Source of the DNA: a virus
Lineage: Duplodnaviria; Heunggongvirae; Uroviricota; Caudoviricetes
Direction: 5' to 3' (one strand)
Length of the DNA stretch: 9,399 bases
IMG/VR virus record: IMGVR_UViG_2667527789_000017
Every line of letters starts with the position of its first letter. The first letter of the stretch is position 1. Of the stretch, positions 2,796 through 8,457 are shown in pieces. The position numbers and the translations under genes are program-made. A model generated the notes under the pieces. That model ran no database searches, was not told the DNA's origin, and saw only the letters and a program-made list of their open reading frames with translations.

Positions 2796-3677
2796 TTACA
2801 TAGATGTTTCGTTTAATTCTTCCCGACAAACGCTGTAAACGTCGGTGGCTTTTGCCAGCAGTTCGTCATCATCTGAAAGTTTTTGTGCAATGTATTTGTA
2901 AGCCTTATCCAGTTCGGAGACAGTGCTGTAATTCATCGCTGCGCTGGTAAAGGCCATCAGCATTTCTTCTGGATCACGGCTATCCGCTTTACGCGTTTGC
3001 TCATCATGCTTTTTCGCTGGTTTAGCGTTGATCAGACTGTTCATTCCCGCAGCAGTAGTCGTTTGCGGAGTAATGTCTCGCTCAACACGCGGTGCCGTTT
3101 CCTGTAATTCGTCAGGGGTGTAAACACCGAGAAGCACATCAGGAGCGTGCAGGCGAGCCCATCGTTTCGTGCAAAGATAGGCAAGCTGCTGGCGCGGATC
3201 CTGTTCCCACAATGGAGAGTTACGCACTCCGGCTTGCGCCATACTGATGGTAAGCTCACGGGGTTCTGCTTCTCCTTTAAGAACTGCTGACACAGTTACC
3301 GTCAGATTCGGTGATTTATCTGTTTTGCCGTTAACATTCGACCAGTCACCGCTCCAGCGATAATTCAGGCGTGTCGCTAGCAGGCTGGAAGAGGATACGA
3401 CCGCGTTTACCAACTGTGCTTCGTAGCCTAACGTTCCGTTTACCACATGCGTTTTCTGCGCCACGGCGAAAGGGTTCATTCCCCACTGTGCCGCCTGCAT
3501 GGTCACCGCCAGACAATCGGCAGGTTTGCCTTCAAGATGTTTCGGTACAGTCGCTTTGCTTTGTGACATCAACTCCGCGAAACGCACCAGTTGATTCATG
3601 CCCTCCGGGCTGAAGATTGCCGCAGCAGTACCTACAGTTGCGCCTGGTTGTGATGTGATTGCGATATCATTGCTCAT
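2796..3677 (-). CDS. bet: Bet/Redbeta-family single-strand annealing protein (RecT superfamily)
   Basis: 293-aa ORF; local similarity by eye to lambda Bet (window NPFAVAQK... / RQQLAYLCTKRWARLHAPDVLLGVYTPDELQE / RVERDITPQ versus lambda NPWTKEIYAF... / MLRHKAMIQCARLAFGFAGIYDKDEAER / ERQPERDITP). ATG at 3677 overlaps the exonuclease stop (ATGA). Confidence 0.85.
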   Translation of the reverse strand: MSNDIAITSQPGATVGTAAAIFSPEGMNQLVRFAELMSQSKATVPKHLEGKPADCLAVTMQAAQWGMNPFAVAQKTHVVNGTLGYEAQLVNAVVSSSSLLATRLNYRWSGDWSNVNGKTDKSPNLTVTVSAVLKGEAEPRELTISMAQAGVRNSPLWEQDPRQQLAYLCTKRWARLHAPDVLLGVYTPDELQETAPRVERDITPQTTTAAGMNSLINAKPAKKHDEQTRKADSRDPEEMLMAFTSAAMNYSTVSELDKAYKYIAQKLSDDDELLAKATDVYSVCREELNETSM

Positions 3678-4495: not shown

Positions 4496-4791
4496 GCCGC
4501 GTCCCTCTGTCCATCAAGCTGATCAGCCAGATCCCAGCGGGCGATAATTGCCATTGCCTCGCGCCGGTAGGAATCCATCAGTTCTTCGAACTCTGGACTG
4601 TCTTTAGCGGCCTCCAGTACTTCCTGGCGAACGCCTTTACCTGTTACAGCGTCGAAAGTTGAGGCTAGTTGATGAATCCGGATGCTCTCGATCAGTTCAA
4701 CTTGTCGGTCATATAGCTGTTCTGACAGGCGGTAGTCCTTGTCGAATGCCTGCATGATTTTTTGAAGATTTTTCTGCTGATTAACGTTCAT
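4492..4791 (-). CDS. Hypothetical protein (99 aa) preceding exo; function unknown
   Basis: ORF track gives start at 4806, but the internal ATG at 4791 is preceded by GGAGGG with 6-nt spacing (minus strand ATGGGAGGGCTGATAATG), so 4791 is the likelier start. Stop overlaps the exo ATG (ATGA). Acidic, helical-looking sequence with no recognisable family. Confidence 0.55.
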   Translation of the reverse strand: MNVNQQKNLQKIMQAFDKDYRLSEQLYDRQVELIESIRIHQLASTFDAVTGKGVRQEVLEAAKDSPEFEELMDSYRREAMAIIARWDLADQLDGQRDAA

Positions 4792-4793
4792 TA

Positions 4794-4946
4794 TCAGCCC
4801 TCCCATATCTCGTTATCGTTGGCCACATCGCGAGCTTCTTTGCTGACGAAAGCCCACTTAATGCCTTCCTGTAAGGTGCGGAACTTCCAGCTCATGAATC
4901 CGCATGCAGTAACGCAGTACCAACCGTTGATGATTTTCCACTGCAT
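4794..4946 (-). CDS. Candidate small ORF (50 aa, MQWKIINGWYCVTACGFMSWKFRTLQEGIKWAFVSKEARDVANDNEIWEG), first gene of the leftward operon
   Basis: Not in the supplied ORF track (below its size cutoff). ATG at 4946 is preceded by GAGGT about 8 nt upstream; stop TGA at 4796-4794 lies 2 nt before the next gene's ATG at 4791. Trp/Cys-rich hydrophobic N-terminal half. Sits immediately downstream of operator site 4966-4980. Confidence 0.3.
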   Translation of the reverse strand: MQWKIINGWYCVTACGFMSWKFRTLQEGIKWAFVSKEARDVANDNEIWEG

Positions 4947-4965
4947 AACTTGTTACCTCGGCTTG

Positions 4966-4980
4966 TTACCTTTGAGGTAA
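4966..4980. promoter_or_regulatory. Operator-like palindrome TTACCTTTGAGGTAA (member of TTACC-N5-GGTAA family)
   Basis: Perfect 5-bp inverted half-sites with 5-bp spacer, directly read from sequence; just downstream of the pL-like promoter elements; an orphan TTACC half-site lies at 4953-4957. Confidence 0.7.
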
Positions 4981-4982
4981 TG

Positions 4983-5008
4983 ATTATGCGTATTTGGTTT
5001 GATGTCAA
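4983..5008 (-). promoter_or_regulatory. Putative leftward early promoter (pL-like)
   Basis: On the minus strand a consensus -35 TTGACA (+ strand 5003-5008) is followed by an A/T-rich -10 region CATAATCAT (+ strand 4980-4988). Exact -10 register is ambiguous (best hexamer CATAAT gives a 14-bp spacer). Flanked by operator sites at 4966-4980 and 5028-5042. Confidence 0.35.
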
Positions 5009-5027
5009 TAGATATGAGTTAAAAAAA

Positions 5028-5042
5028 TTACCTGCAAGGTAA
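5028..5042. promoter_or_regulatory. Operator-like palindrome TTACCTGCAAGGTAA
   Basis: Perfect TTACC-N5-GGTAA; centre 62 bp from the centre of site 4966-4980, upstream of the pL-like -35. Confidence 0.7.
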
Positions 5043-5055
5043 TTGTATGGGCAAT

Positions 5056-5078
5056 AAAAAAGCCGCCATGAGGCGGCT
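5056..5078 (-). terminator. Rho-independent terminator of the repressor gene
   Basis: Minus-strand reading: stem AGCCGCC, loop TCAT, stem GGCGGCT, followed by TTTTTTATT. Stem is + strand 5061-5067 paired with 5072-5078, and the U-run corresponds to the + strand A-run 5056-5060. Begins about 22 bp downstream of the repressor stop at 5100. Confidence 0.8.
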
Positions 5079-5099
5079 TACTTGCTGAAAACTATAGTT

Positions 5100-5684
5100 T
5101 TATTGTTTGCTTTTTTCGTTCTGGTTGATGACAAATTCAATGTAACTTTCGATCTTTGCTTTCTCGGTTTCGGGTAACAATGCGTAGCGCGAGCGGTCAT
5201 AGTTGATAGTCGCGGGGTCGTGCGGGTGAATCAGTAATTCATATCCGTGACGCCCGAATGCGGATGCAACATTCTCCAGGGTGGAAATGGAAACGCTGAC
5301 CTCATTGTTTAACAGGCGGCTGATTGTCACCTGGGCGACGCCGGATGCGCGGTGAAGTTTTCCCTGCGTTGAAAGGTCGCGGCTTTCGCTCATCCAGCGT
5401 TCCAGGTTGTGAGCCGCCAGCTGACCAATGTCGCTTGGTCCGACAGGCTGAAAACCTTCCTGAGAAAGCGAGCGATCGATATCAAGCCAGTTACGGGGTT
5501 TATTGGCGGCAGCTTCAATTTTTCGCGCAACCTGGTCGCCGATAACCTTCTTGCCAAGAGCCCAGCGGTTTACCAGATTTGCCTGAGTTCCAAGTTTTTC
5601 TGCCATCCGCGTCTGAACACCATTGAATTCACGGTCGATCAAGTCGTTGAGATTTTGCCTGCGGACGTCCTGGATACTTTTCAT
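5100..5684 (-). CDS. Prophage repressor (CI-like role) with two tandem Cro/C1-type HTH domains and no S24 peptidase domain
   Basis: 194-aa ORF divergent from a Cro-like gene across an operator-rich intergenic region. Two HTH_XRE-like segments: GVQTRMAEKLGTQANLVNRWALGKK and ASGVAQVTISRLLNNEVSVSISTLENVASAFG. C-terminus shows no LexA/CI-type autopeptidase signature. No SD within normal distance of the ATG at 5684, compatible with a leaderless or short-leader mRNA as for lambda cI from pRM. Confidence 0.75.
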   Translation of the reverse strand: MKSIQDVRRQNLNDLIDREFNGVQTRMAEKLGTQANLVNRWALGKKVIGDQVARKIEAAANKPRNWLDIDRSLSQEGFQPVGPSDIGQLAAHNLERWMSESRDLSTQGKLHRASGVAQVTISRLLNNEVSVSISTLENVASAFGRHGYELLIHPHDPATINYDRSRYALLPETEKAKIESYIEFVINQNEKSKQ

Positions 5685-5739
5685 TTTCTGGAAAATCGCC
5701 TCATATATGAATCAGTAGATGATTCAATTTAAAGCAATA

Positions 5740-5754
5740 TTACCCAACAGGTAA
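5740..5754. promoter_or_regulatory. Operator-like palindrome TTACCCAACAGGTAA (immunity region site 1)
   Basis: Perfect TTACC-N5-GGTAA in the divergent repressor/Cro intergenic region. Confidence 0.7.
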
Positions 5755-5756
5755 AT

Positions 5757-5771
5757 GCACCCCATAGGTAA
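5757..5771. promoter_or_regulatory. Operator-like site GCACCCCATAGGTAA (immunity region site 2, one half-site variant)
   Basis: Right half GGTAA perfect, left half GCACC instead of TTACC; centre 17 bp from site 1. Confidence 0.55.
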
Positions 5772-5777
5772 CTATCC

Positions 5778-5813
5778 TTGATTTTTGTTACCTTATGGGT
5801 GAATATTTATTAT
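5778..5813 (+). promoter_or_regulatory. Putative rightward promoter for the Cro-like gene (pR-like)
   Basis: Candidate -35 TTGTTA (5785-5790), 17-bp spacer, -10 TATTAT (5808-5813). Alternative -35 TTGATT (5778-5783) with -10 GAATAT (5801-5806). Operator site 3 overlaps the -35/spacer. Confidence 0.4.
5788..5802. promoter_or_regulatory. Operator-like site TTACCTTATGGGTGA (immunity region site 3, one half-site variant)
   Basis: Left half TTACC perfect, right half GGTGA (reverse complement TCACC, same variant class as GCACC). Lies in the spacer of the putative rightward promoter. Confidence 0.55.
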
Positions 5814-5838
5814 CTGAAATAAATATCAGGCAATAGCT

Positions 5839-6069
5839 ATGAGCGATAACGGACATTTCGATTTCAAAAAGCACTGGCTTGCACTTACTCCGGATGAGCG
5901 TGAAGCCTTCGCACAGGAAGCCGGAACGACGAGTCACTATATCCAGACTCACTTAACAGGTAAGCGCAAAATGCCAGGTAAGGTATTGATGAATGGGCTT
6001 TTTAAAGCCTGTAAAACAAGACAATGGCTGAGCTCAAAAGCAGAACTGGCATACTTCTTCTACTCATGA
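5839..6069 (+). CDS. Cro-like small HTH DNA-binding protein
   Basis: 76-aa ORF divergent from the repressor. AFAQEAGTTSHYIQTHLTGKRKMPGKVLMNGLFKAC resembles the Cro/YdaS-type HTH layout (compare lambda Cro [29 protein letters not shown]). Followed by a strong terminator. Confidence 0.7.
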   Translation: MSDNGHFDFKKHWLALTPDEREAFAQEAGTTSHYIQTHLTGKRKMPGKVLMNGLFKACKTRQWLSSKAELAYFFYS

Positions 6070-6090
6070 TATCCAGCCACAACCCTCTGT

Positions 6091-6114
6091 AGACCGCCAT
6101 CCGGCGGTCTTTTC
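6091..6114 (+). terminator. Rho-independent terminator after the Cro-like gene (tR1-like position)
   Basis: Stem AGACCGCC (6091-6098), loop ATCC, stem GGCGGTCT (6103-6110), then TTTT (6111-6114); 22 bp after the Cro-like stop. Confidence 0.8.
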
Positions 6115-6124
6115 ATATCTATTC

Positions 6125-6139
6125 GCACCTCAAAGGTAA
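6125..6139. promoter_or_regulatory. Operator-like site GCACCTCAAAGGTAA immediately downstream of the Cro-gene terminator
   Basis: Same family (GCACC variant left half, perfect GGTAA right half); lies 11 bp after the terminator T-run and about 80 bp before the next gene. Confidence 0.5.
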
Positions 6140-6217
6140 CAAAAAACCAAATCTGGTTGATCAAATTTTCCAATTGTGCAAAATAGCCAATATCAATAAC
6201 AAAAAGGGGCAGAAAAA

Positions 6218-6430
6218 TTGAAGATAGTAACCAGAATGGAGGCCGCAAAAGCCGGGTTAAATCGCTATTTCACAGGAAAGCGGTGCCGTCACGGCCATCT
6301 CTCTGAAAGGTATGTTCTGAACGGAACATGTGTTGAATGTGCAATGAATAGCGCCAACCGCCATCGTAATGAATTTGCTTGTGCACTAAAGAGTGCAAGA
6401 GGGGAAACCTATGGCAAGCAGCTGGATTAA
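6218..6430 (+). CDS. Small protein with putative zinc-binding motif (C-x-H-x-H ... C-x2-C), function unknown
   Basis: 70-aa ORF from TTG at 6218 preceded by AAAGGGG 8 nt upstream; an internal ATG at 6236 has no SD. Motif GKRCRHGHLSERYVLNGTCVEC. Occupies the position between cro and the replication genes where lambda has cII, but shows no similarity to CII. 3' end overlaps the next gene by 20 nt. Confidence 0.5.
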   Translation: MKIVTRMEAAKAGLNRYFTGKRCRHGHLSERYVLNGTCVECAMNSANRHRNEFACALKSARGETYGKQLD

Positions 6431-7247
6431 GGTTGAAGTTATCACTCCTGATAAACCTGAAATTTTTCAGATAGCAGAAATTCTGGGTATTGATCCAGAT
6501 GCTGTTCTTGGAAAGCTGGTTCGTATATGGGCATGGGCTGACCAGCAAACAATAGACGGTAACGCTGGCAGCGTTACAAAAGGAGTACTTGATAGACTCG
6601 CTTTTATTACAGGATTTGCTGACGCCCTCATTAGCGTCGGATGGCTTGCTTATCATGACGGTAAACTAATTCTTCCAAACTTTGAGCGACACAATGGAGA
6701 ATCATCGAAAAAACGTGCACTTACGAATAGAAGAGTGGCAGAGCATCGAAAACGAGTAACGCAAAAAGTAACGCCAACAGCGTTACAAAAGGAGTTACCA
6801 GAGGAAGAGGAAGAGGAAGAGGAAGATATATATAAAACCCCACACATAGCGCACGTGCGCGAGGGTGCTCCGACCAGTGAAGCGAACGGTATGCCGTTGC
6901 AGGTGGCTGAACCTGAATTTCTGGATGGCCTGAGTGAACCCATCGGGAAATTTCCGATGACCGATGGTTGGCATCCGTCGCCGGATTTTCGACGGCGTGC
7001 TGTGCTGTGGGGAACGGCCCTGCCGGAACCGGAATTTACACCTGCTGAACTTGCTGCATTCCGGGATTACTGGATGGCTGAGGGCAAAGTGTTCACGCAG
7101 GTTCAGTGGGAACAAAAATTCGCCAGGCACGTAAATCATATCAGGGGAAAATCAAAAAACGCCGGGAAAAGCGATGAGCTTGACTGGAATAACACTGACT
7201 GGATAGAAGGGGTGTGGGATGAAATCAACTCCAGAACTTCTCAATGA
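6411..7247 (+). CDS. Replication initiation protein: phage replisome-organiser-like N-terminal region fused to a DnaT-like C-terminal domain
   Basis: ATG at 6411 preceded by AAGAGGGG with 6-nt spacing; the ORF-track start at 6393 has no SD. C-terminal IGKFPMTDGWHPSPDFRRRAVLWGTALPEPEFTPAELAAFRDYWMAEGKVFTQVQWEQKFARH aligns by eye with E. coli DnaT [61 protein letters not shown]. N-terminal SWIKVEVITPDKPEIFQIAEILGIDPDAVLGKLVRIWAWADQ resembles phage replisome-organiser N-domains. Central poly-Glu linker. Confidence 0.85.
   Translation: MASSWIKVEVITPDKPEIFQIAEILGIDPDAVLGKLVRIWAWADQQTIDGNAGSVTKGVLDRLAFITGFADALISVGWLAYHDGKLILPNFERHNGESSKKRALTNRRVAEHRKRVTQKVTPTALQKELPEEEEEEEEDIYKTPHIAHVREGAPTSEANGMPLQVAEPEFLDGLSEPIGKFPMTDGWHPSPDFRRRAVLWGTALPEPEFTPAELAAFRDYWMAEGKVFTQVQWEQKFARHVNHIRGKSKNAGKSDELDWNNTDWIEGVWDEINSRTSQ
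6559..6577. repeat. Inverted repeat GTAACGC-TGGCA-GCGTTAC followed by AAAAGGAGT (copy 1 of intragenic repeat)
   Basis: Directly read; 7-bp arms with 5-bp spacer, inside the replication-initiator gene. Confidence 0.7.
6756..6786. repeat. GTAACGC half-site (6756-6762) plus inverted repeat GTAACGC-CAACA-GCGTTAC (6768-6786) followed by AAAAGGAGT (copy 2)
   Basis: Shares GTAACGC ... CAGCGTTACAAAAGGAGT with copy 1 but sits in a different codon phase of the same gene (copy 1 starts at codon position 2, copy 2 at position 1), so the repeat is conserved at the DNA level rather than the protein level. Confidence 0.7.
6801..6824 (+). repeat. Hexanucleotide tandem repeat (GAGGAA)x4 encoding a poly-Glu linker
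   Basis: gaggaagaggaagaggaagaggaa read directly; translates as EEEEEEEE in the initiator gene and is followed by AT-rich GATATATATATAAAA. Confidence 0.9.
6849..6860. repeat. Perfect 12-bp palindrome GCGCACGTGCGC
   Basis: Read directly; lies just downstream of the AT-rich stretch inside the initiator gene. Confidence 0.7.
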
Positions 7248-8000: not shown

Positions 8001-8020
8001 GCGCGATAGCGCATTTTTTT
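8001..8020 (+). terminator. Weak candidate intrinsic terminator after the P-like gene
   Basis: Short stem GCGC (8001-8004), loop GATA, stem GCGC (8009-8012), then A and TTTTTTT (8014-8020). Only a 4-bp stem, so low confidence. Confidence 0.3.
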
Positions 8021-8032
8021 ACGCCTCGATAA

Positions 8033-8047
8033 TTACCTGTTGGGTAA
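8033..8047. promoter_or_regulatory. Operator-like palindrome TTACCTGTTGGGTAA
   Basis: Perfect TTACC-N5-GGTAA, upstream of the promoter-like elements that precede the gene at 8113. Confidence 0.7.
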
Positions 8048-8066
8048 TAAAATATTCTAAAATCTA

Positions 8067-8095
8067 TTGATTTAGTGTCTTATGTGGTTTTTAAT
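8067..8095 (+). promoter_or_regulatory. Putative sigma70 promoter for the downstream operon
   Basis: -35 TTGATT (8067-8072), 17-bp spacer, -10 TTTAAT (8090-8095); predicted start site falls inside operator site 8096-8110. Confidence 0.45.
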
Positions 8096-8110
8096 TACCT
8101 TAGAGGTAAA
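8096..8110. promoter_or_regulatory. Operator-like palindrome TTACCTTAGAGGTAA overlapping the transcription start and RBS of the gene at 8113
   Basis: Perfect TTACC-N5-GGTAA; its GAGG doubles as the Shine-Dalgarno sequence 6 nt before ATG 8113; centre 63 bp from the centre of site 8033-8047. Confidence 0.7.
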
Positions 8111-8112
8111 TC

Positions 8113-8457
8113 ATGAGAAAACAGATACAGGCTCTTGGTCGACTCAAAACAGGCCAGATGAACAAAACAGAATCTGCGTATTGCCAGCACCTTGAGCTGC
8201 GTAAACGTGCAGGAGAAATCGTCTGGTATCGATTTGAGGGTATCAAGCTGCGGTTAGCTGACAACACGTTCTATACGCCCGATTTTGCTGTGATGCTCGC
8301 CACCGGCGAGATGGAACTGCACGAAGTGAAAGGTTTCTGGACCGACGACGCCAGGGTGAAAACCAAAGTCGCCGCAGATCAGTATCCGTTCCGAATCATC
8401 GGGGTAACGGTTAAACCAAAGAAAGCAGGTGGTGGCTGGAACATCGAAGAGTTCTGA
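8113..8457 (+). CDS. DUF1064-like phage protein with PD-(D/E)XK nuclease-type motif (putative structure-specific nuclease)
   Basis: 114-aa ORF; FYTPDFAVM ... ELHEVKG gives a D ... E-x-K arrangement typical of PD-(D/E)XK nucleases. Overall pattern recalls the DUF1064 family of small phage proteins, assigned from memory only. Confidence 0.6.
   Translation: MRKQIQALGRLKTGQMNKTESAYCQHLELRKRAGEIVWYRFEGIKLRLADNTFYTPDFAVMLATGEMELHEVKGFWTDDARVKTKVAADQYPFRIIGVTVKPKKAGGGWNIEEF

Follow-up and report, generated by a model that had tools for sequence, protein, structure and literature searches.

A conserved promoter-like element beside a repressor-type site after the cro hairpin of a phiV10/epsilon15-type prophage

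The window analysed here (the whole 9,399-nucleotide stretch of the viral record IMGVR_UViG_2667527789_000017) carries, at positions 6091-6139, a GC-rich hairpin that follows a Cro-like gene and stands directly before a site resembling the operators of the prophage repressor, Rep; the replication genes lie downstream. The question raised by this locus is how those genes are expressed if the hairpin ends transcription from the cro promoter, pR. An earlier note on the sequence had named three options, an antiterminator of a type other than lambda N, a leaky terminator, or a promoter in the spacer, and this proved to be the right frame, but the promoter, which the note had set aside, turned out to be the best supported of the three. 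Judged by comparison of related sequences, 6091-6139 would form the left margin of a junction between operons, with a repressor-touched replication promoter (here called P_rep) after it, and not a checkpoint of the lambda tR1 type, a reading that we hold with slightly better than even confidence; a prophage of the phiV10/epsilon15 type would probably need no lambda-style antiterminator. The elements of the junction are as follows:

5839-6069, + strand: Cro-like gene, 76 aa (from the list of open reading frames (ORFs); PHROG 35 'transcriptional repressor', E = 1e-12)
6091-6110, + strand: GC-rich hairpin with an 8-bp stem and an ATCC loop, AGACCGCC-ATCC-GGCGGTCT (terminator scan)
6111-6124, + strand: terminator tail TTTCATATCTATTC, a short U-run and then mixed bases (sequence, lineage comparison)
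6125-6139, no strand: putative degenerate Rep operator GCACC-TCAAA-GGTAA (GCACCTCAAAGGTAA), 2 mismatches to TTACC-N5-GGTAA
6145-6158, no strand: AACCAAATCTGGTT, a copy of the motif WATNTGGTT, abutting the P_rep -35 hexamer (motif count)
6157-6162, + strand: -35 hexamer TTGATC of the proposed P_rep (TTGAT invariant in 17 of 17 lineages)
6163-6178, + strand: P_rep spacer, 16 nt here and 15-17 nt in relatives (comparison)
6179-6184, + strand: -10 hexamer CAAAAT of the proposed P_rep (AAAAT invariant in 17 of 17 lineages)
6184-6198, no strand: vestigial promoter-proximal operator, TAGCC-AATAT-CAATA (register as at promoters pL and p3)
6218-6430, + strand: first gene of the downstream operon, 70 aa, TTG start (PHROG 1081)

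The case for P_rep is carried by conservation. The spacer between cro and the next gene was compared among 17 distinct lineages from 10 or more enterobacterial genera, drawn from phages (phiV10, Tyrion, BUCT554, epsilon15, SPN1S and two Klebsiella phages) and from prophages (of Citrobacter, Erwinia, Kluyvera, Pseudescherichia, Buttiauxella, Scandinavium, Pseudocitrobacter and Klebsiella), with 80 near-identical E. coli viral contigs added. Mean pairwise identity was 0.97 in the -35 hexamer and 0.93 in the -10 hexamer, as against 0.39 in the distal 10 nt of the spacer between them, and the -10 hexamer retains the A at position 2 and the T at position 6. The proposed P_rep was the best + strand sigma70-like site between cro and the next gene in 16 lineages and the second best in the remaining one, as scored with a simple matrix built on textbook frequencies, which gave it 8.5-9.1 bits compared with 8.2, 11.3 and 10.6 bits for p3, pL and pR, respectively. 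From a predicted start near 6191, the transcript would have a 27-nt leader that includes a GGGG ribosome-binding site (6206-6209) ahead of the TTG codon at 6218. Megablast homology of the window to phiV10, Tyrion and BUCT554 stops exactly at 6162, the last base of the -35 hexamer, so that the immunity and replication modules appear to be joined inside the promoter; among E. coli relatives two alternative right-hand modules occur, with CAAAAT in both. The earlier statement that 6115-6217 holds no convincing sigma70 promoter is true by single-sequence criteria only, and the promoter was missed because its score in a single sequence is not significant; hexamers invariant in 17 lineages around a diverging spacer now speak for it.

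Several other signals were considered in this region and rejected. A leftward promoter in 6125-6165, suggested by homology with pL, has its -35 (the TTGATCAA palindrome) in the window-type module only and would have a spacer of 14 nt; a promoter with the operator within its spacer and GGTAAT/AATAAT as -10 lacks a -35, and its -10 is poor in the window (AACAAA). The reading of TTATCCAAA, upstream of the -35 in Klebsiella and Enterobacter lineages, as a DnaA box was dropped, this sequence being absent from the window, and a promoter-like match on the - strand at 6093-6066, which is unconserved in Tyrion and epsilon15, is probably due to chance. GATC is part of the P_rep -35 hexamer (TTGATC; TTGATCAA in the window), except in two lineages with TTGATA. 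Among the genes of the prophage is one for an N6-adenine methyltransferase (1446-2096, - strand), and methylation-sensitive activity of P_rep is conceivable.

The second line of evidence is the putative operator at 6125-6139, which is centred at about -59 from the predicted start. The two outermost bases of its left half account for both mismatches, the GCACC variant is shared with the second site over pR (OR2, 5757-5771), and 13 of its 15 positions, N5 included, are identical to the pL-proximal operator read on the - strand. By count, one such copy is near chance, since two-mismatch sites number 22 in phiV10 where 15.4 are expected genome-wide. Perfect sites in phiV10 number 8 (0.05 expected) and one-mismatch sites 6 (1.2 expected), the phiV10 allele of the post-cro site having one mismatch, and the window holds 5 perfect sites and 11 with at most two mismatches (2.65 expected). 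The post-cro copy is regarded as non-random because all 17 lineages have the same GGTAA half (the left half has 1-4 mismatches) and because its register is fixed, with exactly 17 nt between site and TTGATC in every one; the distance from hairpin to operator, unlike this one, shifts by a few nt. Among 82 E. coli loci, single-nucleotide polymorphisms (SNPs) were found only at positions 1-2 and in the N5 of the site, leaving ACC and GGTAA untouched. The operator-family site that the earlier note had placed right after the terminator is borne out by its conserved place and GGTAA half, and this conservation also lends support to the proposal that the repressor touches the junction.

Perfect and one-mismatch Rep sites in phiV10 are mostly intergenic and are spread across the whole genome, several of them just after annotated terminators. 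Rep sites in that phage stand at positions 87, 105, 3252, 20497, 20877, 24692 and 26870, their places including the terminase start, the vicinity of the antirepressor region, and the regions upstream of the lysis cassette and of int. This distribution suggests that one repressor may directly gate many transcription units. Operator-like sites also occur within coding sequence in the window, namely TCACTTAACAGGTAA at 5949-5963 (2 mismatches, in cro) and TTATCATGACGGTAA at 6650-6664 (1 mismatch, in the initiator gene described below), and their number is compatible with chance.

The third line of evidence is that the layout of the junction recurs elsewhere in the window, where the following elements bear on it:

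4966-5079, - strand: pL cassette, with the rep terminator (5079-5060), a distal operator (5042-5028), TTGACA-17-AATCAT (5008-4980) and a proximal operator (4980-4966) (scans, folding)
5100-5684, - strand: repressor Rep, 194 aa, two helix-turn-helix-like domains (full-length match to PDB 5D50; HTH_3)
5740-5802, no strand: OR, three operators over pR, at 5740-5754 (perfect), 5757-5771 (GCACC variant) and 5788-5802 (GGTGA variant) (pattern scan)
8001-8109, + strand: p3 cassette, with a weak hairpin and T7 (8001-8021), an operator (8033-8047), TTGATT-17-TTTAAT (8067-8095) and a second operator (8095-8109) (scans, folding)

The geometry of pL and p3 is held genus-wide: an operator, 19 nt, TTGACA or TTGATT, 17 nt, and a -10 whose final T doubles as the opening T of the second operator. 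The operator centres are 62 bp apart, and a terminator precedes each cassette. The post-cro block mirrors pL around rep-OR-cro, with a terminator, an operator, 17 nt, TTGATC, 16 nt, CAAAAT and a TTACC-type half-site in the same order; the left half of this proximal site reads TTACC without mismatch in 10 of 17 lineages, and the right half is absent except in BUCT554, which has the full site with one mismatch. The rep and cro terminators (5058-5082, - strand, and 6088-6112, + strand) are similar hairpins with a GCCGCC...GGCGGC core that bracket the immunity region, the former scoring 30.6 bits with a model built from post-cro hairpins only, and on the outer side of each stand a repressor site and an outward-facing predicted promoter. 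The p3 promoter, both of whose operators are perfect, fronts a DUF1064/Holliday-junction-resolvase-like gene (8113-8457), and the RefSeq record of epsilon15 annotates a repressor binding site at the equivalent place. An alternative promoter can be drawn at p3, TCGATA-16-TAAAAT, with the distal operator within its spacer. On the + strand of the pL region, TTGATG-18-AAAAAT (4999-5028) abuts the operator at 5028-5042 and would read antisense into rep; this conserved element overlaps the pL -35 and an A/T-rich upstream stretch and is probably not a separate promoter.

A second motif, WATNTGGTT (full palindrome AACCATATATGGTT), was found 16 times in phiV10 (2.75 expected) and 5 times in the window (0.67 expected). 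Window copies include those at 4991-4999, 6150-6158 and 8081-8089, and phiV10 copies those at 3310, 20923 and 24736-24749. The intergenic copies are near Rep operators, within the spacers of pL and p3, next to the P_rep -35 on its upstream side and in three other intergenic regions of phiV10, and none was found in OR; the motif may be the site of a second regulator.

A number of points weigh against P_rep as a repressed promoter. It matches 8 of 12 consensus positions, which is below the scan threshold, and 20% of shuffled sequences score equally (8.5 bits). The putative operator has two mismatches and sits upstream of the -35, where repressors do not classically act, its gap to the -35 is 17 nt where pL and p3 have 19 nt, and the proximal partner is a half-site that is poor in the window (TAGCC...CAATA). 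The entire block from GGTAA to TTGATCTTTTTT is conserved, beyond the hexamers, and another DNA-binding function could explain part of this. Co-variation of operator and repressor specificity was uninformative because all 17 lineages share the TTACC/GGTAA half-sites, and the accessible literature (the primary epsilon15 and SPC32H papers excepted) holds no mapped transcript start or end and no Rep footprint at the junction.

The hairpin itself has been annotated before, as a putative rho-independent terminator in phiV10 (GenBank DQ126339, 33078-33100). It begins after 21 nt from the cro stop (6069), stands between cro and the replication genes, folds with -15.0 kcal/mol (z = -5.2; 0 of 200 shuffles as stable), and is followed directly by UUUCAUAUCU. 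Across lineages 89.6% of cells were paired and 4 pairs were altered on both sides, for example A-U/G-U/G-C at one position, G-C/U-A/A-U at another and G-C/A-U at a third, and the covariation score of 0.282 (0.169 in shuffles) was reached by 0 of 500 shuffles; these pair counts were made on arms extracted and aligned by hand with loops normalised to GAAA, a procedure that leans towards structure. A MAFFT alignment was not used for them, arms with unequal loop lengths being mis-registered, and a covariance-model search was likewise set aside in favour of the hand-extracted arms, having drawn in rep terminators and missed epsilon15. Stem SNPs among the 82 E. coli loci are wobble-compatible. The tail has four U (the last stem U included), then C, then mixed bases, and passes the 5-of-8 T rule of the scan; a U-run tail is kept in the E. 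coli, Enterobacter, Erwinia, P. vulneris and Pseudocitrobacter lineages. Relatives without a U-tract (epsilon15, SPN1S, Citrobacter, Klebsiella and Kluyvera) still have the hairpin, followed there by UCCUUCC, UCCUGCC or AUCUGCA. The 'strong terminator' of the earlier note is upheld as regards the hairpin, with its folding energy and conserved pairing, but its strength is not established, because the U-run is short, and termination at this spot is not universally conserved, the U-tract being present only in some lineages. In the E. coli lineage, with its short U-tract, the hairpin probably terminates part of the transcripts; to judge by the lineages that keep it without a U-tract, it may have a role other than intrinsic termination, for example in 3'-end stability or pausing.

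These properties bear on the simplest alternative, that the terminator is leaky and nothing more, read-through from pR expressing the replication genes and TTGATC and AAAAT serving some other purpose. The short U-tract (UUUU, C, mixed) and the non-significant single-sequence score of P_rep agree with it, and read-through must be tolerated in those lineages from which the U-tract has gone. It leaves unexplained, on the other hand, the invariant hexamers 15-17 nt apart around a diverging spacer, the 17-nt lock between operator and hexamer, and the layout that recurs at pL and p3. As the sole explanation leakiness is judged unlikely; as an added contribution it is compatible with P_rep.

Two further alternatives concern Rep. 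In a domain search Rep had no peptidase domain, and over its full length it matches the SPC32H Rep (PDB 5D50, E = 3.5e-42). Secondary sources describe Rep as a tetramer on DNA that is taken apart by the antirepressor (PMC9638917) and its C-terminal tetramerisation domain as a fold linked to DNA looping (PMC9986798). Overexpression of the orthologous ZX5 repressor abolished free phage and lowered lysis-gene transcripts by more than 99.9% (PMC9782041). Rep at 6125-6139 might act as a stoperator-like roadblock to polymerase that escapes the hairpin, making read-through repressor-dependent. The site starts 14 nt past the stem, the distance from the core stem varies little (13-16 nt), several further phiV10 junctions have Rep sites after their terminators, and the L5-type stoperators of mycobacteriophages offer a precedent (PMC9283540); those stoperators, however, are asymmetric and orientation-dependent whereas the sites here are palindromic, the register of the site is fixed to the -35 and not to the hairpin, and pR is already repressed at OR in the lysogen, so that a roadblock would matter only transiently. 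This role alone is considered improbable. A comparably low probability is given to the site as an auxiliary looping operator, which the Rep tetramer would link to OR, about 385 bp away, to tighten repression of pR without a role at a local promoter. The two DNA-binding pairs of the tetramer and its looping-linked fold (PMC9638917, PMC9986798) would suit such a loop, as would the distance from OR1 to the site of 384-387 bp in many lineages, but that distance varies (373 bp in P. vulneris) and the exact 17-nt register to TTGATC would go unexplained; looping would not exclude a repressed P_rep.

Antitermination was looked for in several ways. That no N-like antiterminator is visible, as the earlier note had stated, was confirmed: the first two pL genes, encoding 50 aa and 104/99 aa, match only PHROGs 898 and 856 (function unknown), with no Pfam or NCBIfam match and no Arg-rich motif. 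Matches resembling the boxA of nut sites numbered 4 where 6.9 are expected, and Rfam at E <= 1 gave no match to a known RNA element, the presence of a put model in Rfam being unchecked. The untranslated space between pR and the hairpin is small, the 21 nt after the cro stop and a short pR leader leaving no room for nut or put. No Q protein is annotated in phiV10, TL-2011b, Tyrion or epsilon15 (relatives only, not the late region of this prophage), gp14-gp20 of TL-2011b have no antiterminator family match, and no N, Q or other antiterminator is annotated in the related genomes examined. The Q-like and put-type elements that the earlier note had proposed to search for were thus not found, within the annotated relatives for the former and Rfam for the latter, and its equation of the hairpin with lambda tR1 and N does not fit this phage group, in which relatives lack annotated N or Q and many intergenic regions carry repressor sites. 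An unrecognised antiterminator that lets polymerase read through the hairpin, be it a small pL ORF (no function is known for the first two pL genes, of 50 and 104 aa) or the AlpA-family protein (PF05930; 2498-2746, - strand), the only remote candidate of another type given that Pseudomonas aeruginosa AlpA is a processive antiterminator, is very improbable, with no N/Q family match, Arg-rich motif, boxA excess or Rfam match, no room for nut or put before the hairpin, and the AlpA-like gene at the excisionase position of the pL operon and annotated as excisionase in epsilon15. It would be the least supported of these alternatives, none of which seems to explain the fixed register and the conserved hexamers as well as a repressed P_rep does; read-through, a roadblock and a looping site may each contribute.

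According to the mechanism that we propose, pR would yield a short transcript with cro as its one gene, ended at least partly by the hairpin, and P_rep, a weak sigma70 promoter, would express the 70-aa ORF and the replication genes on its own, without pR. In the lysogen, a Rep tetramer on 6125-6139 would hold P_rep down, and the TTACC-like half-site at +1, just after the -10, may assist it through a small loop. Removal of Rep by the antirepressor would let pL, pR, P_rep and p3 all fire directly and in parallel, so that no antiterminator would be required, and the terminator would insulate P_rep and its operator from pR read-through, Cro being made without replication proteins. A more far-reaching version can be put forward only as a doubtful speculation: Uetakeviruses would be lambdoid in looks but free of antitermination, the antirepressor-sensitive Rep tetramer directly gating all terminator-bounded units, with a split operator at the replication operon (a strong inner GGTAA half at -59, TTACC at +1, the outer halves degenerate) clamping a micro-loop of about 60 bp and/or a roadblock making post-cro termination repressor-dependent, and with palindromes of the AACCATATATGGTT family, one beside each promoter under Rep, as the site of a co-regulator.

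By sequence, the window is the early region of a prophage of the phiV10/TL-2011b/epsilon15 type (Uetakevirus). Positions 4700-6500 are 97-99% identical to HEMP4, TL-2011b, ZX5 and phiV10, and the immunity region is present in 561 of 5,426 complete E. coli genomes (about 10%). In order, the genes are a P4-type integrase, the early genes that run leftward (methylase, PerC-like, AlpA-like, RecT, exonuclease and a pair of small ORFs), the 194-aa repressor (- strand), the 76-aa Cro-like gene, the 70-aa ORF, a DnaT-domain initiator (PF17948), a lambda-P-like loader (PF06992) and a DUF1064 gene. The Cro-like gene, the sole gene between pR and the hairpin, is the orthologue of phiV10 gp41 and epsilon15 gp39, and its protein had no match in Pfam and PDB sequence searches; the 70-aa ORF is the orthologue of phiV10 gp42 and epsilon15 gp40. 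In the DnaT-domain initiator, a GAA/GAG repeat at about 6810-6835 (+ strand) gives eight consecutive glutamates (EEEEEEEE). A tRNA given in the ZX5 paper (complement 14482-14558) maps to about 6400-6476 (- strand), at the start of the initiator gene; ARAGORN found no tRNA in the entire window.

In the database records examined, the post-cro terminator (phiV10) and the operator family at pL and p3 (epsilon15 RefSeq) are already annotated, and the post-cro operator and a promoter between cro and the next gene are annotated in none. Related phages convert the serotype of Salmonella, E. coli O157 and Klebsiella. If the proposal is true, induction would be a one-step release of several parallel promoters by the antirepressor and not a lambda-like cascade, which would call for different models of prophage induction, leaky replication and module exchange, with a mosaic joint lying inside a promoter and compact terminator-operator-promoter cassettes standing under a structurally characterised repressor/antirepressor pair. 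The gain would be in detail rather than concept, because the regulatory principles are all known.

Among known systems, lambda is the obvious comparison, with its terminator between cro and the replication genes in cro-tR1-nutR, its divergent repressor/cro region and its leftward recombination genes. Lambda tR1 depends on Rho, and N, once loaded at nutR, overrides it, whereas here the hairpin is of the intrinsic type, a conserved predicted promoter follows directly downstream, and an N-like protein, a nut site and, in relatives, Q were not found. Coliphage 186 has CI flanking sites, FL and FR, which are isolated weaker repressor sites a few hundred bp from the main switch, much as the post-cro site lies from OR; the 186 sites differ in acting through the CI multimer wheel and in being out of register with a local promoter. 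Phage P1 silences many units through dispersed C1 operators without an antitermination cascade. L5-type stoperators are similarly numerous, dispersed and intergenic, one repressor silencing many units, again without such a cascade (PMC9283540). The sites of L5 and P1 are asymmetric and monomer-bound, and those of L5 block elongation in an orientation-dependent manner; the sites here, in contrast, are palindromic, bound by a tetramer (Rep) and mostly promoter-flanking. The window belongs to the Rep-Ant system of epsilon15, SPC32H and phiV10, to judge by the full-length match to SPC32H Rep, the TTACC-N5-GGTAA operator of the epsilon15 RefSeq record and the shared gene order, and induction by antirepressor has been shown for ZX5 and SPC32H. 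The closest functional precedent is that of N15 and phiKO2, in which the CB repressor binds operators at the repA promoter as well as OR and represses replication directly (PMC4997575). The prophage in that case is a plasmid with a Q-like gene, and its repA promoter, which lies on the opposite side of cB, is overlapped by two good operators, whereas here one degenerate site stands upstream of the -35, with only a half-site at the predicted start.

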